A stretch of 56,371 bases of DNA, the filler included, from Porpidia crustulata (Eukaryota): assembly GCA_964255105.1 (NCBI GenBank). It is 4 parts of 4 records of this genome, joined end to end, with 100 filler letters (N's around TTAATTAATTAA, not from the genome) between each part and the next. Parts side by side here need not be neighbours in the genome. Positions count along the whole stretch, not along the records: positions 14,125 to 28,147 come from CAXUWE010000400.1; 3 more parts are not named here. The stretch is one strand, 5' to 3'. Under the pieces are notes generated by a model. The model did no database searches and was not told the DNA's origin. It worked only from the letters and a program-made list of their open reading frames with translations. The position numbers were made by a program, and so were the translations under genes. Position 1 is the first letter of the stretch. The number at the start of each line of letters is the position of its first letter. This document shows positions 14,025 to 42,368 of this stretch, in pieces.

Positions 14025-14124
14025 NNNNNNNNNNNNNNNNNNNNNNNNNNNNNNNNNNNNNNNNNNNNTTAATTAATTAANNNNNNNNNNNNNNNNNNNN
14101 NNNNNNNNNNNNNNNNNNNNNNNN
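14025..14124. other. Artificial contig-joining spacer
   Basis: 44 N + TTAATTAATTAA (stops in all six frames) + 44 N = 100 bp; identical to the other two spacers. Confidence 0.98.
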
Positions 14125-14240
14125 GACCGACTCAATCCACAACCCTTTTCACCCTAAGTCAGCCCATCATATATCTCAAAAGAAAGCAATGATTATTACT
14201 GATTGATTGATTGATTTGTATCTCATTAATTAGTTACTTT

Positions 14241-14431
14241 TGTTACGATCAGACCTTCCCCAACATCCCCAGCAGCCCTTTGGTAGGGCTAGCGCCCCTA
14301 GGGGGGCTGAGCCACCGGATCAAGGTGGTGCCGAGCCTAATGAGGCCTAGCGTCGCTCTAGCATTTCTTCCTTAGCATTTATTTCTTCGTTGATTTACCC
14401 CCATAGCTAGGTAGTCAGGAGGCCCTTAACA
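14241..14431. mobile_element. Solo LTR (191 bp) of an LTR retrotransposon
   Basis: Begins TGTTA, ends TAACA, flanked by an exact 5-bp direct repeat ACTTT (14236-14240 and 14432-14436). Confidence 0.8.
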
Positions 14432-15082
14432 ACTTTGTAATAAATGAAAGCGTTCGTTGTGTGATCTCGAAAAGAAAATTTATCGATAAAAATTTGAGTG
14501 GAGCGACGGCGCTTTTGAGGATTTGATGTTCTGAACACACTGTTATAGCCAGGGATATGATGAGCCTTCATTATTGAACCTGAGTAAGGTCAGATTAGGG
14601 CATTTGGGCGAGCCAGGACGTTTTCAAGAGGTCACCGACCACTCCGACCTTGCTATCACTGAGCGCCAGACCTCCGGGGTTTACCCGACAGGCAGCAAGC
14701 AGCCCAGATAGAATTAAATTTTACGTTCAATTCTGTAGCCATGCCAGCGCTTGAGTTGGAACCAACTTGCATACCTAATAGGAATTACCCCCCCTCTCCC
14801 CACCTTTCATCAGATAGGACTGTTATTTCAAGCTGGCCTTTTAATTAAAGGCGGACCTCCCAGGTCAAGCTCGATAAATGCAGCCCATTGTCCCAGTCAT
14901 ACCTACTCTTTCCCTCTGCTTCTTCTTCCTCCTCTTATCGCTGATTCCAAATCAAGTCCGCACTCTATCCATGCAGGAATAACGTTCAGCTCCCACACGC
15001 TCTCCCAGATTTTGGACCCATAGGTTGAAAGACACGACTGAAACATCCAATGGAAATATAGATAAAAGGAGAGGCAACAACA

Positions 15083-15642
15083 TTAGAAAAGCCCTGAGGC
15101 CCATTGTTTGATAAGAATGGCTACCCAACAGATAGACTCGGTCAGCTCTTACGAGGGTTGGTCATTCACATTGTATATCTAACCTCTGCAGGTCTCGTGC
15201 GACCTTTAATTGAACCTATACTACAGATTGAAGACTTTAAACCTCGTCATAGCGTTTTAATAACACCAGAGAAGATGGCAATGGACTATCAAAATGCTAG
15301 ACTGGTGGACGATGTGTATCCTTGGTCAAGTCCGTTGGAATAAAGCTACCTACGTGCCGCCATGCTCATGCTGTACTGTAGGCATTTTCGCCGAGCAATC
15401 ATCCTTATCTCAAATTTATAGACTTGAGATGCCAGCACCAACTTATTCAAGGACAATACGGCCGAAGGCCCGATATCCCTGGCCTCACTGCACTCGGCTT
15501 CGAACAATGGGTTACCATCTTCATCCAAACTCACCCCAATATAAGTACAGGAGACTTCGGTACATCATTCTCAACCTACCAATTAACAATCCGGACAATG
15601 TGATAGAGGTTTCCCAAGGACATTCCTAGGCGACTATTTCCA
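15083..15642 (+). pseudogene. Decayed fragment of a conserved fungal domain (resembles what I recall as DUF7514)
   Basis: Pieced across frames and two introns: LEKP*GPLFDKNGYPTDRLGQLLRGL / IEDFKPRHSVLITPEKM..YPW / LRCQHQLIQ..RPDIPGLTALGFEQWVTIFIQTHP / LPINNPDN..FPKDIPRRLFP. TGA at 15095 and several frameshifts. Confidence 0.7.
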
Positions 15643-18600
15643 CATTGCGAAGACCCAAGGTCTCGTAATCGTATTAGAGATGCTATCTCTAAGTATACGG
15701 TCGTCGAAATATCCAGACGAAACCCGGGAAGGCCTCACTCTCGTCTATCTCACTCGATGCGAATTGAAGATCAGTTTTGCAATCCACCAAAGAGCCGACA
15801 TGTCAGATTCGTTCTACCCAACGGTTGTCGTAGTACCACTCAACACAATAACGTAGGTGCAGAAAGTCGGAAAGGTTCATCACATACACATGGAGCGCAA
15901 GCTCAACCATCAACCTACCGTTGAACAGATTAAGCGGCTTGCTTACATCAATGACCATCCCTAGGTGCTATATAAGTCATTTTGCATCCAGCTGTAGCGT
16001 ACTTGGAATCTTGAAATCAGGATGAAACGGGATCCAGATCTTGTTGATTCCTCCATAATGACTTGCTTACAATTGTCCCCTTTGTAGCGACGGTGACAGC
16101 ATGCATTCGCTGAGCAGCCTGTATCCACACAATATGGTTCGGACGACCATCTCAAACATCGTATCATAGCAAAAGCGAGCATACCTCGGCCCCGAGTTCC
16201 CTGTACATAATCTATCTATCTGGTAGCAGTCTTCCTTAGTAGCCATCCTCTCTGCACAGCCACCCTTTGTCAAGCTAGCCTTAAGTTTTATCTGATGCAC
16301 TTGCTCGGTTTGGGTTTTGAAGCTTGTTAGTGTCTTCAAGACTACGTTTTGAGCTAAGATTATTAGGTGATGACAGGGTATTGGCGCGTAGGCGAGATGT
16401 GCTTCAAGGTGCGCTCCGTCGGCGTGATTCCATGACTTGTCACGTTTGCTAAACTCGAATGTACGGTCCTGGTAAGACTTTCGCTCATCGCCTATGTAGA
16501 TAGGACATTGCATAGGCCGGCAAACCAGAGGGAAAACATTCGTATCGTCTTGCTGACTTTGCTCGAAAGAATACAGCGGCTCTGGAGGCTGTAGGAAATC
16601 TTGAAGATCTGGAAGTTCGGGAAGCTCTGGAACGGCTTTTATGAATTTATCCAGGCCAAGGGAGCTGATAGTAGGCATTGAGCGGCGGCAAAGTCCTGAC
16701 TCCTCTCGACGGCACAAGGCAATTCTCAAATTGATTGCAGTAATCCTTCTCTCGAGCCTTTCTGAGTCTGACTCAGCCCGTTCGGGGATGTTGTACTTTA
16801 CAGGTCTAAGAGGCGAGTCATCGTTCGGCAGTACCGAGTTCGAGTAGTCATTCATCTGGGCTTCAACGGCGATGGTATCGGCTACTCTAAGGTGAAGCTT
16901 TCGGTCCAGGCGGAAGTAATCGCTTCGGAGGCTCTCTTTGAGCTTGTGGCGAGCGTGGTCGACGGATCCTTTCTTCAGCCGCATTGGGTCACTGCTTGGA
17001 TCGTTGGAGACAGTATCATAATTGCCCTTAATCTTCTCTTTAAGTTTTTGGGACTCTTTCAAGAGACGTTTGACGTGCTGATGATCAACGACCCTCCCGG
17101 AGCTCTTATTCGAGTATCTGGAAGGCGCGTTATAATCCGCTGTCAAAGTCATCAGCCAGGCCAGCTTTTGAACAACGTTGTCGGAGGGTCTCTCGAGAAA
17201 GGCGGCTTGGGTATCAAATGATACCTCTCAATTAAGATAGCAAGGGGTCGCAGCGGAGGACCGATGGTCAAAGATCTGATTCATAACTGATATAGCCGCC
17301 GTGCCTGAATCGTTAGTATCAGCGATACGAATCGATCCAAGGTTGTGATCGGATTGTAACATGGTACAGCTTATCGTTAATCGCACTCATAAATCCGCGA
17401 AAGATATACTGTATGAAATGACGTTGCAGGCCCGCATTCAGACCGAGCTTTCTACAGTAACCTCGCCACGTACTAGCCCGTAGAGGGTCTGTGTCAGAGG
17501 TACCGCAGGAGCAAGCAGATCGCATCGGGGCGCGAAGGTTTGGTTCATCGAGGACATCACTCTTTCAAGTCAAACTGTGAGCTGGCTTGTCGTCCAGTAG
17601 CTTCAGCTTGAAGATACGAGAAATGTCTGCATTGAGTGTGTCAAGCGAGAACGCTCCGTCATGATATGCTAAGGGAAAGGAGATGGTCGAGGACACAGAA
17701 ATGGGGGTCGTTCTCCCCTACACAGACGAAGGTTTTTCTGCGAAACGGTTAACAAACTGATAATGCACTTCTGGATAATAAAGACATACACATTATCTCT
17801 TTAATTCGCTCCTTTAGTATGCAAAATTGTAACTTTTCCGAGCAATATATTCGGATCGCCTTGGACTGGATTAGGAGCAACAAGTAGCTCTACTTGCCTG
17901 TAGGTAATAGATCCACCCTCTTCTGATCCCACCTCGTAGCCATCATCAGTTTCACTATCACTGCTGTCGCTGCCACTCGTCGACGATCAATCGTCATCAC
18001 TCTCAAGATCATCATCTGGTCCGCTGTTATTACTATTGGCACCTTCCTTCTCCATTTCCTGTCTAGTATCGAATAGCGAGTAGGGTCTACATCCAGCCTA
18101 AATATCTAGGAGGAGAGCGGCAGCGATTTGAACTCGCTGTCGCTCATCCGCAAATATCGTGTCGTCAAAAGTCCGATGGGTGAAGAGAGTGTGATAAACA
18201 TCGTCGGCACACATTACGGGCATGACTTCTGCATGCAGCCTCAGCCCGTATGCAGATATGAGAGTTTTCTTGTACTATGACCCACCAGCATCAGTCAGGA
18301 TTCGTTAGAAGGTATTCAGAAGATAGCAGCTTACGTTGACGACATCCATCCTCAAATCCTCATCCCACTTTGCAACCACTCCCACGGCGAACATACATCT
18401 TCAAGATGTTCCAATAAACATTCAAGACACTGCCAGCTTTGATTCTAGGGCAGTGGTCAAGGATCCATCGCAGAAACGCCTTGATTCCAGGAGCTCGTAG
18501 CGGAAACCGTTGGACGTCTGGGTCTCTCTTCCAGTTTCTTGAGTAAAGCTAGCGAGAAACGCGATATGTTAGATCCACCATTGAAGTTGAGAATATCACT

Positions 18601-18656
18601 AATCTGGATCCTCACTTCATCCATCTCTTTTGTAGCGATTGCATTCGTACGTAATA

Positions 18657-18857
18657 CTATCCCTTAAGCTGGCAGTCCGTGTGCCACCAGGATTATCGGG
18701 CACCTTACCTATCCGGATATACGCGATACCTAAAATGGCTACGTCGAATTACCTGATCTTACCAATATGTGCTAGATGTTAGGGCAAGGGCTTCACCGGA
18801 TAGGTAAGGCGTACCCGATAATCCTGGTGGCACACGGACTGCCAGCTTAAGGGATAA
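18657..18857. mobile_element. MITE (201 bp), ~60-bp terminal inverted repeats, TA target-site duplication
   Basis: Left CTATCCCTTAAGCTGGCAGTCCGTGTGCCACCAGGATTATCGGG...CCTTACCTATCCGG is the near-perfect reverse complement of 18796-18857. TA at 18655-18656 and 18858-18859. No ORF. Confidence 0.88.
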
Positions 18858-18942
18858 TAGCGAGGATCTCGCTTGACGATTTCCACCATACCTTGCATAC
18901 CTGTTTGGCTCTGCTGGTTAAATTCAATAGCATATGCAGCTA

Positions 18943-19040
18943 CTCAGGCTGTCAGACTAGTTTTCAATCTTCGGACACAGAAGCGAGAATACCGGCATAA
19001 ATTCTATCTTTCGTGTCCGAAGATTAAAAAGTAGCCTGAG
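18943..19040. mobile_element. Small fold-back/MITE-like element (98 bp), TA-flanked
   Basis: Termini CTCAGGCT / AGCCTGAG, inner arms AATCTTCGGACAC / GTGTCCGAAGATT, TA on both sides (18941-18942, 19041-19042). Confidence 0.7.
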
Positions 19041-19197
19041 TAGGTGTTCTTGCAGCGTAAAGCGGCTTCAAAGGCTGCCGGAAATGGGCTTGAAGTTTGA
19101 TGTACTATGTAGGTAATCATGGGACTAATGTGCTACGCCCGCAGATGATAGTGTTCGCTTGCGATATCTATAGAAACACCCTCCCACCCTCCATAGT

Positions 19198-19296
19198 AGA
19201 GGGTTTTTGCAAACAAAACTTAGCTGTCAACCCTGCGATTAAAAATAGACCATTTTCAGTTAGATCAGTGAGGCTTTTGGTTTGCAAAAACCCTCT
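19198..19296. repeat. 17-bp perfect inverted repeat pair (possible third MITE)
   Basis: AGAGGGTTTTTGCAAAC (19198-19214) and GTTTGCAAAAACCCTCT (19280-19296). Excluding the terminal A/T, the flanks are TA (left) and TG (right). Confidence 0.6.
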
Positions 19297-19398
19297 GGTC
19301 AGAATTCAATCAATCGATCCAAATTCAGTCCCGGATGTCAAGTTATGATATCTCTATAAATGTATCTACCGAATCAATTTTGAAAAAAAAAGTCTACT

Positions 19399-22300
19399 CT
19401 ATGCAACTTGTGCCTTCGCAGCCAACGCCTTATCGGTGATGCTTTCAGCCTGCGAACTTATGCGCGTACTCGGGTCAAGAAGGTCCAACATGCTGATGTT
19501 GGTTGCAAGCGCTTGTAGGAACCAATTGCGCAACTCGGCAGCAATCAAACTGTCCACGCCTAGATCCGCCACTGACTTGGACGGATCGATACCCTCCACA
19601 TCAACAAACAACATCTCCGCCACCGCGTTAGAGATGGCACTTTGCACAGACGCTACGGTATCAATACGCCCAGCAGCTCCTGCCTGAACAGCCGCGTCAA
19701 ATTTGTGACGTACCGAAGCGACCGTATTCTTCGATCCTTCATCCAAAGAGCCCGTCAAAGAGGCAGAGTGCCGTTGTGCATCCGAGAAAGCGCGGATCAT
19801 GAGCGAGATTCGCGCGTCACTATACCAGCGGGGTACGGCAGCGGATGAAGGCGCATCGCCCTCTTCGCGCTTTCTGGCCATCATGGCTGCTGGGTCCAAG
19901 TAGGTGTGCAAGTTTGCGGCGGAAAGCGGATCCTCCAGTCGACCGTGCCATTGTTCGGAGCTTGTGGTGTCAGCTGTCTTGTTGTTCAAGAATGCTGGCT
20001 CAAGCAGTGTCAAGAATTGAGACTCGCTCAGCGTCAGCGTCTTGTTGCGCTCAAAGAGATCCACAGTGATGGCATCTGTACCGACTTTCGTAACCTCATG
20101 GATCAAGCTAAACGAGGTTGTCGACGCAGGCAAGCCCAGTCGTTGACGGTATCGTGCGAACGCATCCTGAAAACTATTGGCTGCGGTGTATGCGCCTTGC
20201 GTTGCAAATGCATACACAGACAAGGCCGAGGTGGTCATGATGAAGAAGTCAAGCGGCATCGATAGGGTTGCTTCGTGCAAGTTCTTAGTTCCCTGTACCT
20301 TGGCTGACAGACCCTCATTCCATCGCGAAGATGAAAGCTTGTCGAAGGTGAGGTCCAGGTATGAGACGGCAGCGTGCACGATACCCTTGATGGGACGAGA
20401 AGAAGAGATCTGTTGGATCACGCGTGTAATCTGGTCCTTGTTGGTAACGTCACAGACAACAGAATTGACGCGAATATCGCGGCTGGCCAGTGATTCAACA
20501 AGTTCCTGGGCTCCGGGGACGCTGGTAATATCACGTCGAGAAAGAAGTGTCATGTACCTTGCACCCCGATCACCCATCCATCTGATCAAGGACTGTCCTA
20601 AGCCGCCCAAGGCTCCAGTAATGACATAGCAGGCCTCGGAGTCGAAGTTGAGGGCCGGGGCCTGAGGAATCATTCTGACTAGACTCTCCGGGTTTGTAAA
20701 GGTTACGACAAGCTTGCCAATCATGCTGGAAAAGTTACCCAATACCTGGGACAACTGAGCAACATCAGGTGCAGTAACCTTTTGAATGGGCCCAACGAGT
20801 CCTTTGCGGTAATAGTCGTCGAGGGCCTGCATGAGCTCTTCGACAAGCAATGGGTCCGAGTCAATGATGATCGAAGGGTTAATCGAGCAATAGCTAGCGT
20901 TCTTTTGGAATAACTCCAAACTAATCGCTTGATCGTTTTGTGCGCCGGCTCGGCCCACGTCGATGAGGTGGCCCAGAGGTGCCAGTACCTGGAGAGACGA
21001 CTGTAGAAGTTCGCCCTGCGCAGTGCTCAGAACCACATCGAACCCACACTTGCGCGTCATTTCTGCAGCCCGCCGGAGACTTGCCGCGCTGGGTGCTGGG
21101 ATGACATGCGAACCTGGCATGGCCACCTCGTCTAGAAGGAAGCTAGCTTGTTCAGGCGTCTCGACCATGGCGAAAACATCCGCTCCTTTTGCCTTTGCGA
21201 GACGAATTGATGCCAGCCCGACATCATTCGCGCCCGACTGAACGAGCACCGTCTGTCCTTTTCTGAGGTGGGCGACGTGGTCGAAAGCAAAAATAGCGGT
21301 CATGTACGCCAATGGCATGGTAGCCATCTGTATCATATCATCACTTGGCTGAAGCTTGCTCGCGAAGGTAGCTGGCACGCGTGTGTAATTGCTAAATTGG
21401 CCCTTGCCGAGACCATACACGCGGTCGCCAATCTTCAAATCACTGACTCTGGCGCCAATCATGGAGACGATACCCGCGTATTCAGAGGAAAGATTATTGG
21501 CATCCAAGCGACCAGACCAGTGCTCCAAGTCCCTCCAGTTCAGGCCAACAGCTGCAACCTTCACATCGATGAAGTCTTGCGGCAGTGGTTGCAAAAGCTC
21601 TGCATAGGATTTGAAGCACAAGGAGTTGAGTACACCGGGCGTCTCAAAGGCAGCGCGTACAGCACCTTGGCTGTTGAGGGGCAGCATCTCCGGTTTCATG
21701 CTTTGGCTGTCCATACCGTGTTGCGAGCGGAAGCCTGCATCGGGTACATGGCGACTAACCCACATGGAGCCATCTTGCCAAGAAAATTCACGGTCCTTTG
21801 GATTACCCTCTTCGTCGTCCATGGGAATGCCTTGGTGTAGTGCAAACTCCTGGTCGACTATGCAGCGAGCAAGATCTTTGGCTTCGTCATTTCCAACTTC
21901 AAAGTTGTCAGCGTCGATGTCGATTGACATGTACTGGCCGACAGGATTCTCGGTTTGAAGGACTCGGAGCAGGCCAGGAATCAATGCACCATCCGCATTC
22001 CTTCCTTTAACTATGCCACAGCTCGTAACAGCAACCAAGCTTGCCGTATTCCGTGCAAGGTGTTGGGAGATCTTTAGGTCTTGCTCGCTGGCATCGACCA
22101 AGAGATGCTTCTCATCGAAAAGGCCCACCACGCGCGATTCTGCCCCAACGCTATCCAAGGCCTTGTCAAGTAGACCTGCTTTGGCGATCACTCCCCGTTG
22201 TTTCAGTTCTTTGGAGATCTGATGGACAAGAGCCGGAGGCGTTTTGGTGCTATAGAGCAAATGGACAGCGGCAGATTGGGGTAGCTTTACTTTCTCTGGG

Positions 22301-25300
22301 ATATATGTAGAAACGATCACAGAGGTGGTGTTATGTGGTGCCGGGAAATCGTCCAATACCGCATCAAGCCCTGAGAAGCCAGCTTTTCGCAATGATGAGT
22401 CCCAAGCGTCCAGACTTTGGAAAGGAGCATCTACACGGCCATCAGGGATACCAGCCCAGTACCCTGTGAAGGTACCCACAACGACACCAGGTACAATAAA
22501 GTTCTGGTTGGTTTCGACCAAGACGAGCCTGCCTCCAGGCCTAAGGAGGTTTCGGCAGTTTGACAAAGTTTTGTGCATATTCGAGGTGGCGTGAAGGACC
22601 TGGCATGCAATGACGAGATCGTAAGCCTGCTCGTATCCTTGCTCTGCGGGTTCCACCTCGGTGTCAAAGACAGAAAAGCCTATATCGCGGAAATCGACTA
22701 GAGATTCACGGGCGGACGACAAGAAGCCTGCAGAAATGTCGGTAAATGTGTAGTCCCGATAGGCTTTGATGCCGTTGGAGCCGTTAAACGCCTTCATAGC
22801 GATGCGTGTCGCACCACCGGTACCACCACCAATCTCCAGAATGCGGAGATTGGGATTGGAGTGGGCAATGCCGTCCAGAACGTGGAAGAGCTGTGGGTAG
22901 ATACCAGTCATCAGAAGACCAGATTGATAGAGGGGCGTCAACAGCTTCTCGTTGATAATGACATCAACCCCAGTTCTGCGTTCATAGAGAATGTCGCTCA
23001 TGTTGTCATGTAGAAGCTTGGCTATCTTCACCTCCATGACATCGGGTGCCTGGCTGACCAACTCGTCAATCCCTTCGAGGAGACGTCCTTTGCTTGCGAG
23101 TTGTCTGGCCTCATCCATCAAGGCAGAGTGATCATTTTGACCCTTCCTCTTGATCCAAGCGAAGAAGTCGGCCACCTCGCCAGAAGGCTTGGGTCCATCT
23201 TTCAGCTTCCCGAAGGTTTCATACATACTATATACTACCAAGTTGGCTAGCTCAGTCATGACTCCCCATTTGGCCGATTTGTCGACGTTATCCTTTGGTG
23301 GAGGGTACATCTGGCGAGCTTGGCGATTGGTCAACGTGCGGACATCGGGTTTCCAAACCAGGCGCGTGTACGGACTGCTAAAGGTCTTGTCCGAGGACTT
23401 GGCCTCGGTGGAGTAGCTAATGCAGCGGAGGGTATCGACACTGAGCATCACCTCGCCATTCGAGCCCAGGATTTGCAGGTCAAGATAGGCAGCGCGAAGG
23501 CCACGTCTCTCTCCCCGAGCAAATACGGTGCATGTGACGCCCGTGATGTCGTTGGCGAGATACAAGTGCGAGAGCTGGACGGGCACAAAGGCGGTGCTGG
23601 CGTCGCCGGGCCGGCCTCCATGGGCGGCGACCAGTCCCAGCTGAATGGCGCCATCGAAAGATGCAGGATGCAGAGGATATTTGGACTCGCCGCCTCTGAT
23701 GACGCCGGCGGTGGTGTTCAGGGCCAGGTCAGCGGTAGCCAAGTGTCTTTGTGGATCGGTGCGGATGTTGGAGAGGGGCTGGAAGGCAGGGCCGTAGCCA
23801 AGACCAATGGCTGCGAACTTCTTGTACCAGGCACGTGCATCGGCTAGGCTCGGCATAGAACTAGCAGTAACATTGTCAATTCCTCCAAGGTTCCGCTTGA
23901 TATCAACATCATCAACATCCTCAGCCTCGACCTTGACCAGACCAGTACAGTGCTCTGACCATTCCCCCGTCTCACGTCCCACTGAGCTGATGGAGAATGT
24001 GGCCCATGCTGATGACTTGGCCGTCGCGGTGTCGACAAGCTCCATGCTCGTCAAAACCTCGACACCGTAGTCATCTTCCGGGATCGTCAAGCTGTTCTTG
24101 ATGGCTACATTGCGAAGCGAAAAGCCCTTGATCTTCAGCGCCTCTGGGAACTCGTTGTAGATGCATGCCGCAGCTTCAACTGCCATGGCCATGTATCCCG
24201 CACCCGGTAGCACCGCATCTATTCGCACCGAAGTCAATATGGATCATTCTTTCTCGGGAGCGAAAGAAAACACTCACCTGGCACTAGGCGATGATCGCTC
24301 AACCATGGTACGTCTTTCATGCGAAGAATGTTGCGCCACTGTGGTCGAAGCTTTGCATTGCCGACGACCTTGGAGCCCAGGAGGTCGTGTCTGGTAGTCG
24401 ACCGGAATCGGTACTCTTTGCTTGCTCGGCTCTCGTGATAATTCAACTCTCCATAAGTGTATTGGTATTGGGGCAGATCAATGCAGATGCAGCCATGCTC
24501 CAGACCTGTGCCGTCAATGTTGTCAACAGCGTTTACAGCAGCAAGGTCAACAGTTGCGTTCAAGCCAAATAGAGTCCCAGCAAGCTGCAGCATCGAGGCT
24601 CGGCTGTCTTGCTGTCTCTTCAATGTTGAATTATACGTGACAGTCTTGTCCTGACCCTTCAATATCTGCTCTAAAGGGCTTTTCAAGGTAGGATGAGGTC
24701 CAATTTCTACAATAGCATGGATCGGGACATCCTCCATACTCATGAGTCTTACAACGGCCTCTGAAAAGCGCACGGGAGACTCAAGATTGGCTCTCCAGTA
24801 TGAAGCCAAATCGTCGAGGTCGGCAGTACTCTTACTAGGTGTGACAGACGAAGCCCATGGTACCTGCGGATACCGCTGTTTCTCATCAGCCAGCCCATGT
24901 TTTTGGATGTGTTTAATCCCGTCGGTGAGCATTTTGATGTATTCGCGACCGAGAGGGAGCATGTGATGAGAATGATAGGCATTGCCATCGGTTTTGAGAG
25001 TTCGATTGAAGACGCTGTCTGCGGTCATGGCTGCGGAAATCTCTTCGATAGCTGCAACTTCTCCCGATAGAGTGACGCTGCCTTTGGAGTTTATGGCTGC
25101 CAACTTAACTCCATCTTCTTGGCCTTCTAAATATTTGGTTATTTGGTCGGGACCGAGACCCACAGCCAGCATGGCACCTTTTTGCTTATTTTTTGATACT
25201 GCCTGACCACGGAAGTATGCGGCTACGATGGTCTCGGCAGCTGTAGTACGACCTGAAGCATACGCCGCTGCCATTTCACCTGACGAGTGTCCAGCGACGC

Positions 25301-27460
25301 CCGAAGGTCGGATAGACCACGAAGCAAGAAGGTCGACAAGGCCAATTTGTACGGCTGTACATACGGCTTGAGAGACTTCAGCTGTCTGGATCAAAGCAGT
25401 ATCACAATTGCCAGAGAGAATGTCGTAGAGTGACCATGAAGGACCATTAGGGAGTGAGCCAAGGACATAGTCAAGGTACTGGATGGCTGTCCGGAACACG
25501 CGATACTCGGAAAGTTCAGCACCCATAGCGTGCCACTGAGCTCCTTGACCAGTGAAAATGAAACCCAGGTTGCTAGTTTGTAAAGGTGCTCTTACAGGCT
25601 TTCTATCAATCACGAGGCCTTGAGCGACATTGGCCTTGTCCACAACACGGAAAGATCGTTGCGCCAATCTCGAACGCCTGGCACCGAAGGTATATGCAAC
25701 GTCTGCTAACGAAAATTGGTCTATCACTTTGGATAATGCATCGATATTCAAATTCAGCGAGGTCTCGTTGTGGCCTGAGAGAGGCAGCAGTACCAATTGG
25801 CGTGTAGCCGCGGCCGTTGTGGCATTCAATTTCGGGCTCTCAACGATAGGACGGTGCTGTATTGATGTTCCATTCTGATTTCCATTCGTATGTCCATTTG
25901 TATAGCCAATTGTACGGCCATTTGCGTGGCCATTTGTGTGGCCATATGTGTGGCCGTTTGTATGGCCATTTGTCGTGCCGTTTGTTTCGTTGGCTGTGTT
26001 CTTGAAGATGCCAGGTGCCACATAGCCCGGAAGTACATTGTTGACATGGTCAAGGATGGCGTGTCCATTCGCACCACCATATCCGAACGAGTTTATACTT
26101 GCTCTCTGTAGTCCCTTTGGCCATGGGATAATTTCTGTCACAGGTTTGACCTTGGCCCCTTCGAAGTCGATATTAGGGTTCAACGTCTGGAGATCATATA
26201 CAGGGGGAATAGTTTTGTGCTCGAGGGAAAGCACAACCTTCATGATTGATGCCAGGGCGCTAGCACCCTCACCATGCCCTACGTTGCTCTTGATAGAACC
26301 AACCAGCAACGGATTTTCGGCGTCTCTCTCTGGTGCGAAGACCCTTCCTATAGCGGCCACTTCAATCGGATCTCCGACATATGTGCCTGTGCCGTGGCAT
26401 TCAAAATAAGTCGTATGTGCGAAAGGAAGATCACCAGCGTTTCTGTAAGCTTCGCGGATGACGGTTTCCTGGCCTGTGGCGCTAGGTCGTGTAATACCAC
26501 CCGTTCGGCCATTGGAATTGATGGCAGTTCCTCTGATCATTGCTCGAATGGGTGATTCATCGGCAATGGCCAAAGATAGTCTTTTCAGGTAGATGGCACA
26601 GTAACCCTCTCCACGGGCGTAACCTTCTGCTCTAGAGTCGAAGGTGTGGCATCTGGAAGATGCAGACAATGCGCCGAGTTTGTCGAGCGCAATTTGTGTT
26701 CCGGGATCCGCAATCCAATTAGCGGATGCGACAATTGCCGAGTCACAATCACCAGCGCGAATTGCGTTAACTGCTAGATGCAGAGCATACATGGATGATG
26801 AGCAGGCAGTGTCAACAGTGAGACTAAAGATCAAGTCAGCATTCTCTCGAGAGACGCAAAGACTGATTAATGGCGTACCTTGGCCCTTGAAGATTAAAGA
26901 TATAACTTATGCGATTTGCAAGAATGCTGGTTCCGGCACCAGTAAAGGCATATGGTCTCGGGTTATCCCAATCCCGAGACTGTATCATCCAATGATCGAG
27001 ACAAAAGTTACCGACGAAAACGCCTGTACGTGTGCCGGAAATGCTCTCCCACGTCTCGCCGCCGTTCTCCAAAGCCTCATATGTCACCTCGAGCAGCTTC
27101 CGCTGCGACGGGTCCATTGTCTGCACCTCGAGGGCGGTCATGCCGAAGAAGGAGTGATCGAACATTCGAGCGTCTTTCCCGGCCAGAAATGCGCCCCGCA
27201 TAGCCATGGTGCCCGGGCGCTCCGTGTTGGGGTGGTGGAAACCACGGGTTGAGAAGATGGGGTCGTCGAACTCGCGCCAGCCGTCGACACTGTCCTTGAG
27301 GAACTCCCACAGCTCGGGCGCGTTGCGGACACCGCCGGGCCATCGACATCCTGAACGAGACACGCTTCAGCATCAAGTTTTGTCTGGCCTAAGCAAGGAT
27401 GGGATTTGTCTTACCCATGCCGACAATAGCTACAGGCTCGTGCTGGTCTTGAGCCGCCAT
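19399..27460 (-). CDS. Highly reducing iterative type I polyketide synthase, KS-AT-DH-cMT-ER-KR-ACP, 4 exons, ~2,627 aa
   Basis: Start MAAQDQHEPVAIVGMGCRWPG; introns 27351-27414, 26824-26878, 24219-24277 give a 7,884-nt open frame. KS DTACSS/HGTGT/NVGH; AT GHSSG/AYHS; DH HRLVPDAVLP; cMT LEIGGGTGG; ER-like region; KR GALGGLG..YTAAN; ACP GVDSL. Confidence 0.95.
25880..25990 (-). repeat. Degenerate 12-bp coding tandem repeat (TNGH-like units) in the PKS KS-AT linker
   Basis: Encodes TNGTTNGHTNGHTYGHTNGHANGRTIGYTNGHTNGN. Confidence 0.8.
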
Positions 27461-28147
27461 GATAGGTCCTGCGCGTTTGAAATGAAAATGCTGGAGGTGA
27501 GTTTGTTGGGTTATTATGCATATATCATGATGTACTAATGTATATATATATGAACAACAGATTTAGGCGCGCAAATCCAGCGCGCTTCTGAGCTCCTAAT
27601 GGTATTTTATATACAAATAAGTAACTGCGTATCTTATTAACGTTACTAAATAGCGAAATACAAAATCGACAATCAAGGGAAGTCTAATGATGATCAAGAC
27701 GTTTATCCTGCTACGACCGGCACCGGGGGCACATGTTCACCCGGATTAGGAAGTTGGGGGGATTGAGCCACCATCCGAAGTACTAAGTCGTTGGACCTAG
27801 CCCATGTGCTACTAGATATATCGGATGTTTAGTCCTAACATATCCGATTATATAGATGAGGCAGAAAAAGTACCGACACAAGAAACTAACAAATTGCATA
27901 GTTAAACTATAGTCCTATATTAAATAAATGAAATACTAATCGTATATCTCCTTTGCATATTCGTACATCTCCTTTTGCATACTCGTTTACCCCCCATATG
28001 GGGTTTAGCGCTACCCCAATAAAGCTTAGTACTAGGGTTATAACCCTTTTCCTTATTGAATCGCTTCCCGATTTGAACATGTTCTAGCGCGTATGACAGC
28101 ACAAGGGGTGAAGCATAAGAAAACAGCGGAGCAGGTGGGGGAGGGAG

Positions 28148-28247
28148 NNNNNNNNNNNNNNNNNNNNNNNNNNNNNNNNNNNNNNNNNNNNTTAATTAAT
28201 TAANNNNNNNNNNNNNNNNNNNNNNNNNNNNNNNNNNNNNNNNNNNN
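28148..28247. other. Artificial contig-joining spacer
   Basis: N44-TTAATTAATTAA-N44. Confidence 0.98.
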
Positions 28248-35765: not shown

Positions 35766-37733
35766 TCACCAAGCGCTCACCTCCGCAGGACCAGCATTCC
35801 AATCGCCTGAACCCATCGCTGCTGCTGGCGTTCCCCACTCACCATCGCCAGCAGGGGCATCAGTGCTGGCCTCGTTGTTATACCCTTCTCCTTCACCACC
35901 ATTCTCGTCCGCAACGGGCTGTTTGCAGCGCTTGACCGTGTGTCCCATTTCGCCGCAGTTGTTGCACTTGACTTTGGACCAGTCCTTGGGCTCCGGGCAG
36001 TCCCTAGTAAAATGACCCACCTCGTCGCAGTTGCGGCATTTGGACATTGCAGGGTTCTTAGGCTTGTCGCATTCTGCGCTCTTATGGCCATCCTCACCAC
36101 AATTGCGGCAGGCGTTACTAACGTTGGGACAGTCTTTGGCGAAGTGGCCCACTAGGGTGAATAAGTATGTACGCCCGCATTGCAGGATGAGAACGCCTAC
36201 CCTGTTCGCAGCGTTTGCATTCAACACCTTCAGCAGAACGAGGCTCAGGACATTCGGTAGACTGATGACCAGATTTCCTACTTTTCATCAGTCACTGTTG
36301 ATTTGATCAGCAATCCCTCTGTGACTTACTTGCAATTACGACAAGCGAAGCGATCGATTCGTTCCTTCGGGCAGTCGCGGGCACGATGACCAGCCTCATC
36401 ACAATTGACACACTTTACGCTTACACGGTCGATCTCACTGGCTTCCTCCGGACAGGCCCGCTGAGTATGCCCAAGTTCTGCACGAGTCAGCAATGGATTG
36501 AATCCACATTATAATGCTGCTAACCGTTGCAGCGATTGCATTTGGGTATGCCGCGTTCAAACGGCAGACCAGCATCTTTCAAGCGTTCAAGATTCTCCTC
36601 AGGCGATGATGGCCATCCCTCTGCGGCGTTTGCGCGAGGTGGCTTGGGGGCAAAAAAGAAGCCAACTCGATATTTCTTATTCAATTCGCCCTGGATGTTG
36701 ATAAGGGTAAAAGTAGGGGAAACTTCTTTCTCCTATGATGTTCATCAGCGAGATGCTTTCGTAGCTTCGGACAATGAATACCTGGGCGATTAAATAGGTT
36801 TTGAAGTTATTTGTACGGAACGCACGCTCAAGTGCATCGTACGTCGTGACTGGTACTGCCTTACAGTATACTTTGATAGCCTTCGTCATGATCAGTAGTT
36901 GTCTCGCAAGTGGCCATGGGTCCTCCCACCGCTTTGAGATCGTCGAGGTCTTTTTCATTGTCTGCAACTTCAATTGTGGCCCAGGCATCCTCAGGTCCCA
37001 TATCAGCGACCTCGGACATATCGAACGAGTGGTTATCTTTGCAGTCGATTGTAGCATGGCCTGCATTCTTGTTAGAAGGGCTTGCGTTTGGGCTGAGAAG
37101 ATAAGTGTTTCCCTTACCCTCTTTCTTGCAGTTGTTGCACTTTGAAGGGGGTTTATCTGGACAATCGCGAGCGACGTGGCCGACCTGCTCGCATAGACGG
37201 CATGTTCTATCGTCGACGCGCTCTTCGGTACATTCGGCTTTGGTATGTCTGGAATCTTTAGGTACATAGCTCCAGAAATTGCAGGTACGTCGCCTACCCT
37301 TCCTTCTTACAATTGAAACATGCAAATGCGGGCTTGTCAGGACAGTCGCGTGCAACATGACCTTCGGCATTACAGCTATTTGGGTAGTAGTCAGTTTCCG
37401 AAGTTGTCCATATTTTGAATGCAGAATACTTACATACGACATGTAAAATCGCCGTTGACGTTGGCATTTCCGTTGGTCATTTCATTGGCATCATTAGCCA
37501 TCCCAGTATCGTCTCCTCTGGTACCTCCATTGTTCCAGTCATTTGCAGCTCCTGCTCCGGCGTCCCAAGCTCCAGCTGAATAACAGGTCAGCAGACAGTA
37601 GCAGAACGAATCGAGTAAGTCAATGACATAAAGGCAGCGATGATGAGTTTAATACTCTGCACTTCTCTGGCTCGGAAACGATAGAGGAGTATCAATCTCT
37701 TCAAGACTCACTTGCTCCTTTGTCCCAGCTCAT
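35766..37733 (-). CDS. Multi-CCHC zinc-knuckle nucleic-acid-binding protein (CNBP/GIS2/CnjB-like), multi-exon
   Basis: Many CX2CX4HX4C units (CRLCEQVGHVARDC, CRNCGEDGHKSAEC, CRNCDEVGHFTRDC, CNNCGEMGHTVKRC), G/W-rich termini; start MSWDKG inferred. Confidence 0.88.
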
Positions 37734-42268: not shown

Positions 42269-42368
42269 NNNNNNNNNNNNNNNNNNNNNNNNNNNNNNNN
42301 NNNNNNNNNNNNTTAATTAATTAANNNNNNNNNNNNNNNNNNNNNNNNNNNNNNNNNNNNNNNNNNNN
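42269..42368. other. Artificial contig-joining spacer
   Basis: N44-TTAATTAATTAA-N44. Confidence 0.98.

Follow-up and report, generated by a model that had tools for sequence, protein, structure and literature searches.

A decayed, single-copy DUF3435 recombinase gene of the Starship captain type downstream of a polyketide synthase gene in Porpidia crustulata

We describe a dead gene for a DUF3435 tyrosine recombinase (YR), of the type that serves as captain in Starship transposons, in a 56,371-base stretch of DNA (the window) from Porpidia crustulata (GenBank assembly GCA_964255105.1). The gene is present in single copy, and we are confident in reading it as a relic, best explained by a Starship-superfamily element that inserted long ago just behind a polyketide synthase (PKS) gene. 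When intact, DUF3435 recombinases cut and rejoin DNA by means of an active-site tyrosine and so excise or integrate the element that carries them. Positions are given along the window, in which four distinct pieces, each about 14 kb long, are linked through artificial spacers (44 N, TTAATTAATTAA and a further 44 N, at 14025-14124, 28148-28247, and 42269-42368) across which no feature is to be read. The locus under study sits in the stretch at 14125-28147 (CAXUWE010000400.1), which is one entire contig of 14,023 nucleotides (nt).

RESULTS

Identification of a DUF3435 recombinase gene

An earlier note on this DNA had named a series of DUF3435 sequence blocks on the minus strand, in a fixed order, and had proposed that they belong to a captain pseudogene. 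All of the blocks were located, between 18274 and 16277, within a somewhat longer region of detectable homology:

16277-18530, minus strand: DUF3435 (PF11917) tyrosine recombinase pseudogene, full extent of detectable homology (profile positions 62-732 of 735)
18274-18002, minus strand: ERQRVQ..AGCRP block
17971-17807, minus strand: TILHTKG block
17564-17343, minus strand: LGLNAG..QYIFRG block
17305-17231, minus strand: QIFDH..CYL block
17224-16277, minus strand: FDTQAAFLERPS and the C-terminal Cys/His module

Membership in the family was assessed against PF11917, whose curated gathering cut-off is 25.8 bits. An uninterrupted open reading frame (ORF) of 386 amino acids (16067-17227) scores 33.9 bits (E = 2.3e-8), and a separate piece in frame -3 (17343-17672) scores 26.9 bits over profile positions 111-204. 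The check that the earlier note had suggested, scoring a reconstructed protein, gave a higher value still: frame -1 of 16280-18274, read with X at the stops, reaches 62.5 bits (E = 4.5e-17).

Database relatives tell the same story. Searched with HMMER against 1.84 billion representative sequences, the 386-amino-acid ORF matched 184 proteins at E ≤ 0.001, 42 of them at E ≤ 1e-10, the closest match other than itself being 49% identical. A word-based search of 5.8 billion clusters returned nine non-self matches of 31 to 45% identity, all nine with a precomputed PF11917 assignment; the same type of search scored none of the longer relatives, which were recovered by exhaustive HMMER. The nearest relative is thus 45 to 49% identical, depending on the search, and no protein relative exceeds 49%. 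All eight relatives that we scanned (P0061, P0052, P0060, P0035, P0146, P0084, P0002, and P0003) score above the PF11917 cut-off. Neighbors in the atlas are DUF3435 clusters as well (scores 0.84 to 0.86), which we treat as a lead only. Among the best 150 matches, eight are at least 550 amino acids long; database entries for these relatives are mostly fragments.

Each of the eight long relatives aligned to the locus by tblastn as a collinear set of minus-strand matches (18530-18387, 18274-18017, 17938-17774, 17672-17343, and 17308-16277). From seven of them we built a profile of 735 positions, omitting P0084, whose N-terminal half aligned poorly, and searched it against all stop-to-stop pieces of 15900-19450 on both strands. 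Nine fragments were recovered in order, covering positions 62 to 732; seven are significant or nearly so (E = 3e-46 to 0.0016), and two are weak (E = 0.11 and 0.78). The plus strand of the same interval, which served as a control, yielded no piece better than E = 6.3. The homology to DUF3435 is real and lies far beyond chance.

The sequence also retains much of what is conserved in the family. Among fragment-covered columns, 76 are conserved in at least six of the seven profile relatives, and at 56 of these the consensus residue is still found in the window. The retained residues include R189, R404, H426, and Y434, which are invariant in all seven relatives, and the HTKG motif is retained too. 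By comparison with general YR motifs, we take the catalytic-type residues to be the R of AGCRP, the K of HTKG, the R of QYIFRG, the H of FDH, and the Y of CYL.

The recombinase gene is a pseudogene

A functional captain would be encoded in one uninterrupted, full-length frame. Here, five in-frame stops and three frame errors interrupt the gene, and its N terminus was not detected:

18100-18098, minus strand: stop TAG, between LLLDI and AGCRP
17989-17987, minus strand: stop TGA, in the acidic linker
17803-17801, minus strand: stop TAA, after HTKGAN
17567-17565, minus strand: stop TGA, in exon 3
17230-17228, minus strand: stop TGA, between CYLN and EVSFDTQAAFL
about 18380-18390, minus strand: frame error between ..KMYVRR and VVAKWDEDL, too tight for an intron
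about 17683, minus strand: 1-nt frame error inside the conserved ..HLLSL/AYHDGAF, with no space for an intron
17367-17305, minus strand: 1-nt phase error across putative intron 3

Three of the stops fall inside contiguous conserved alignments (LLLDI*AGCRP, HTKGAN*RDN, and CYLN*EVSFDTQAAFL, with the asterisk marking the stop). The earlier note had attributed the breakage to stops, frameshifts, and miniature inverted-repeat transposable elements (MITEs). The stops and frameshifts hold in the form listed above, but two of the apparent frameshifts proved to be in-phase putative introns (18334-18275 and 17789-17738). As for the MITEs, none lies inside the recognizable gene; a MITE-like repeat is found upstream of it, at 18655-18859.

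Signals canonical for fungal introns mark three of the frame changes, and with these taken into account the gene can be laid out as follows:

18335-18530, minus strand: exon 1 remnant, ..AFLRWILDHCPRIKAGSVLNVYWNILKMYVRR / VVAKWDEDLRMDVVN, with the frame change at about 18380-18390
18275-18334, minus strand: putative intron 1, 60 nt, GTAAGC..TTCTAAC..CATAG, in phase and with homology on both sides
17790-18274, minus strand: exon 2, with ERQRVQ..AGCRP (first catalytic-type Arg), an acidic linker, and TILHTKG; three in-frame stops
17738-17789, minus strand: putative intron 2, 52 nt, GTATGT..GTTAAC..GCAG, in phase and with homology on both sides
17368-17737, minus strand: exon 3, KTFVCVGENDPHFCVLDHLLSL / AYHDGAF .. 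LGLNAGLQRHFIQYIFRG, with the frame error at about 17683 and an in-frame TGA
17305-17367, minus strand: putative intron 3, 63 nt, GTACCA..ACTAAC..TTCAG, with an exon junction 1 nt out of phase
16067-17304, minus strand: exon 4, with QIFDH..CYL, the TGA, FDTQAAFLERPS, a long C-terminal region, and a degenerate double C2H2-like module

Detectable homology begins at 18530 by both tblastn and profile search, and the start at about 19070 given in the earlier note is therefore rejected. About 61 N-terminal profile positions went undetected: a permissive tblastn with the first 230 residues of the eight long relatives against 18250-19450 found nothing credible above 18530, and the profile search upstream of that point gave E values of 3.6 or worse. 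A further in-frame TAG stands upstream of the homology, at 18551-18549.

The part of the gene that remains open is also degraded. In relatives, the Cys/His module is a double C2H2-like structure with eight zinc-ligand columns, of which three are substituted in the window (numbering of the 386-amino-acid ORF):

C244Y: cysteine held by 107 of 122 relatives
C290I: cysteine held by 101 of 111 relatives
H306Q: histidine held by 100 of 104 relatives

Several observations show that the lesions are not an artifact of assembly. A Logan contig of 4,302 nt, from the only sequencing run in which this DNA was found, spans 14386-18687 with no differences; since its read set is probably the assembly's own data, it excludes assembler error but not sequencing error. 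The PKS gene next door offers a check on assembly quality within the contig, and its ORFs of 1,614 and 890 codons run uninterrupted. TAG, TGA, and TAA all occur among the lesions, so that reassignment of a single codon cannot restore the frame. Read depth is about 9.9 over 14593-18336 and about 10 to 11.5 over the PKS; this equal depth indicates that the run holds no second copy of the gene at 90% identity or above. The DUF3435 gene is single copy.

We also considered repeat-induced point mutation (RIP) as the cause of decay. RIP is usually recognized by TpA/ApT above 0.89 and (CpA+TpG)/(ApC+GpT) below 1.03. Over 16277-18530 the corresponding values are 0.74 and 1.18. These do not resemble RIP and come close to what the three remaining contigs of the window show (0.67 to 0.70 and 1.23 to 1.27); RIP was rejected on these grounds. 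The decay is one of ordinary point mutation and small indels, not of heavy RIP.

It is very improbable that the gene is still functional, whether because its breaks reflect assembly, missed introns, or recoding, or because its C-terminal part has been domesticated as a working protein. In favor of such a view, the annotator called a gene of 361 amino acids (P0001) that falls within the 386-amino-acid ORF, two of the supposed frameshifts were resolved as putative introns, and the catalytic-type residues are kept. Against it, no intron fits the three stops within contiguous conserved blocks, no single recoding covers the three kinds of stop codon, a second assembly of the reads shows no base difference, the neighboring PKS is uninterrupted, and the 361-amino-acid ORF lacks the whole catalytic core as well as three of the eight zinc-ligand columns. 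Nothing contradicts pseudogene status, and the PF11917 match and the lesions together bear out the earlier proposal of a pseudogene from the Starship captain family.

Repeats between the pseudogene and the PKS

The 5′ end of the gene faces the PKS stop codon at 19399-19401, as had been proposed. Between the last detectable homology at 18530 and this stop lie 869 nt that hold three inverted repeats, each a local hairpin:

18655-18859: MITE-like foldback element of 205 nt, with 49-nt terminal inverted repeats 96% complementary
18952-19039: second hairpin, with 39-nt arms 82% complementary and 10 nt apart; raised local depth
19198-19296: third inverted repeat, with 21-nt arms 95% complementary and 57 nt apart, about 100 nt downstream of the PKS stop

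The first of these occupies roughly the place of the pseudogene's undetected N terminus and 5′ region. It has the marks of a MITE: it is small and noncoding, ends in inverted repeats, and occurs in multiple contexts. Local depth over the element is 23 to 30, compared with about 10 elsewhere; a separate 5,023-nt contig from the same run carries its arm, and other contigs branch within the arm. A 24-mer from the arm additionally matched three metagenome loci (L001 to L003), one of them on a contig of 94 kb, in which arms 93 to 95% identical bound a shorter element (arms at 1491-1544 and 1599-1649 in L002) with flanks unrelated to the window. The three loci are near-identical and thus amount to one locus in three assemblies, which adds a single context. 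The occurrence of arm copies in different contexts places 18655-18859 in a MITE-like family, and the metagenome copies indicate that another organism has this family too. If the element is drawn as 18657-18857, a TA could stand on each side as a target-site duplication, though two nucleotides carry no weight as evidence. No copies of the inverted repeats were found in the other three contigs of the window.

Known insertion targets were sought as well. An Rfam scan of 14125-28147 at E ≤ 1 returned two chance-level matches and no 5S ribosomal DNA (rDNA), the target of the 5S-targeting Starships, and a tRNA search of the window found none.

Neighboring genes and the remainder of the window

Two genes flank the pseudogene on its contig:

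19399-27562, minus strand: highly reducing PKS, KS-AT-DH-MT-ER-KR-ACP; four long ORFs and three short gaps, stop at 19399-19401
15098-15924, plus strand: DUF7514-like gene, in three Pfam-matching pieces

The three short gaps between the PKS ORFs are taken to be introns, and the depth and composition of the gene are ordinary. The gene content is that of a fungus. No second YR was found in 19399-28147. The KS-AT linker of the PKS (about 25870-26010, minus strand) contains a run of imperfect tetrapeptide repeats, an unusual low-complexity insert at this position.

The left side of the contig is short. About 2.1 kb lie between the 3′ end of the pseudogene and the point where the contig stops in a high-copy repeat. 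The DUF7514-like gene in this interval carries an in-frame TGA TAG at 15601-15606, between its second and third pieces, and no clear start codon was found for it; it may be a second decaying gene or a gene with an unmodeled intron. A full-text literature search returned no paper mentioning DUF7514. Genes regarded as typical Starship accessories include those for DUF3723, patatin-like proteins, ferric reductases, and NLRs, none of which was seen in the roughly 2 kb left of the pseudogene. The left contig end (about 14244-14430) is formed by a short repeat, rich in GC and in part palindromic, where the summed depth is 2,886, compared with about 10 elsewhere, and loose ends are numerous. The repeat belongs either to an element of very high copy number or to organelle-like sequence, and it probably accounts for the contig break there.

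The other three contigs, which are unrelated loci, contain nothing related to the DUF3435 pseudogene, and no Starship accessory genes were found when these were sought in them. They encode members of housekeeping-type families (ERG4/24, photolyase, pyridine-nucleotide disulphide oxidoreductase, PPR, mitochondrial ribosomal protein, and SOG2). On the third contig, two ORFs with CCHC zinc knuckles (35769-36284 and 36864-37481, both minus strand) could represent a cellular nucleic-acid-binding protein or a gag remnant.

DISCUSSION

Origin of the relic

In our preferred account, a Starship-superfamily element inserted long ago, immediately downstream of the PKS, and left this recombinase relic. 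Homology suggests that the intact ancestor had recombinase activity. The present copy is disabled by its stops and frame errors, by an N terminus that is lost or unrecognizable with a MITE-like element in its place, and by the zinc-ligand substitutions. Since intron signals and catalytic-type residues are still legible, the gene probably worked for a time, either in this lineage or in a donor, before it was inactivated.

Several points weigh against this account. The catalytic residues were assigned from general YR motifs rather than from a structure, and the introns were called from splice-signal motifs and phase alone. Membership was established at the level of DUF3435, not of any one of the 11 captain families, and the Logan read evidence is probably not independent of the assembly. 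As regards the wider claim of an insertion, the 14,023-nt contig offers no element boundary, direct or terminal repeat, cargo, or presence/absence polymorphism.

Base rates matter in judging how much of an element once surrounded the gene. The starfish survey reports 10,771 predicted YRs, of which 559 are tied to bounded elements and 10,212 are solo YRs (PMC11162782); given these figures, a full element should not be taken for granted. Predicted elements shorter than 15 kb were dropped from the survey, which used six active-site residues as a filter and gives a median predicted YR length of 812 amino acids. We put at about even the chance that the locus represents a solo relic, that is, a recombinase gene with little or no flanking element, whose cargo was deleted or never carried and whose neighbors are ordinary host genes. 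The survey itself names, as one possible cause of the solo excess, that cargo accompanies only a few YRs (PMC11162782). The relatives of the gene, of which only eight of the best 150 matches are at least 550 amino acids long, suggest that scattered broken copies are the norm in this family, and this is an old, single copy, its best relative being only 45 to 49% identical. Set against this, the short-read contig extends leftward for only about 2 kb, too little to establish that cargo is absent, and the survey's authors blame fragmented short-read assemblies for much of the gap between YRs and bounded elements while allowing that many YRs may be pseudogenes (PMC11162782).

The earlier note had read the locus as the wreck of a Starship, a reasonable hypothesis of which the supported part is the captain pseudogene and its orientation. 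We consider it possible, though doubtful, that a large Starship, now derelict, landed directly behind the PKS and left the gene as its fossil captain, with its 5′ edge in 18531-19398 and its cargo leftward, or else, more boldly, that the PKS cluster itself arrived on a Starship-derived region whose only remaining sign is this captain. The first of these would have the cargo run left through the DUF7514-like gene and off the contig, with the PKS as a flanking host gene, and taken in that form it is likewise possible but tentative. The ends of transposable elements are often packed with repeats, and the stretch between pseudogene and PKS is dense in them, with a depth of 23 to 30 compared with about 10; the high-copy repeat at the left contig end is what one would expect ahead of an accessory, repeat-rich region. 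Starship captains sit at the 5′ end of their elements and are transcribed inward (PMC11162782). With the 5′ end of this gene facing the PKS, cargo in the canonical arrangement would be found leftward, and the PKS would fall outside the element; the orientation is compatible with a captain at an element's 5′ end. A pseudogenized captain in a recognized Starship is also on record, that of Wallaby (PMC11162782). However, direct or terminal repeats, an empty site, and the cargo would all lie beyond the reach of this contig, the 2 kb of would-be cargo in view holds no typical accessory gene, and neither 5S rDNA nor a tRNA target is nearby. The small fraction of YRs tied to bounded elements in the survey also tells against a large element, with the reservation that its authors call the count an underestimate (PMC11162782).

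Alternatively, an outer Starship, nested or rearranged, or a Starship-derived region could have the PKS among its cargo, with the pseudogene as an inner or second captain; we hold this to be improbable. Precedents exist: in Aspergillus fumigatus, Lamia carries the fumigermin cluster and Osiris a non-reducing PKS cluster (10.1101/2024.06.28.601215), a pathogenicity cluster within a region derived from a Starship has been reported for Colletotrichum lupini, and more than one candidate captain occurs in 38 of 597 predicted elements (PMC11162782). On this contig, though, nothing points to an outer element, a second YR is missing from the PKS side, the PKS stands on the wrong side of the captain for canonical cargo, and its depth and composition are unremarkable. 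The solo relic thus retains the largest share of our belief, within the preferred account of an old Starship-superfamily insertion.

Captain-type pseudogenes flag past landing sites of giant cargo-carrying transposons, and such a marker beside a secondary-metabolite gene invites the question of whether a Starship brought in, removed, or rearranged this region. A link between PKS clusters and Starships is already documented in A. fumigatus, and broken or solo captains are very common, so the present case adds an example and no new principle. Its practical uses are two: the annotated 361-amino-acid gene can be corrected to the tail of a dead recombinase, and the pseudogene is a pointer for long-read assembly of P. 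crustulata.

Comparison with known systems

With Starship captains, such as that of Hephaestus (Urquhart et al.), the gene shares PF11917 and the order of blocks with R..K..R..H..Y-type motifs, and its orientation is compatible with a position at an element's 5′ end. Its long C-terminal extension with a zinc-finger-like module has a parallel in the Enterprise captain, for which a zinc finger is noted (PMC11162782). Unlike working captains, it carries stops and frame errors, lacks a recognizable N terminus, and is known from the gene alone. Osiris navis, an example of the 5S-rDNA-targeting Starships (10.1101/2024.06.28.601215), has no counterpart here as regards target.

The closest parallel in state of decay is the Wallaby captain, which is likewise an inactive captain-type YR left in place, pseudogenized by many premature stops and overlooked by the gene finder (PMC11162782). 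Wallaby, however, is a bounded element with known cargo, whereas no element is delimited around the present gene. "Derelict" or "degraded" is the term recommended for inactivated copies, and in that source "derelict" refers mainly to RIP-mutated copies (PMC11162782), in contrast to the present copy, which has no RIP signature. Solo Starship YRs, by comparison, are likewise YR genes on short contigs without predictable boundaries, many of them expected by the authors to be pseudogenes, as here (PMC11162782), and they form the default class for this gene.

Cryptons are also eukaryotic transposons that encode a tyrosine recombinase, and CryptonF served as the outgroup in the starfish YR phylogeny (PMC11162782). 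The present gene is set apart from them by its DUF3435 match over most of the profile and by its DUF3435 relatives, rather than by a direct comparison with Cryptons.

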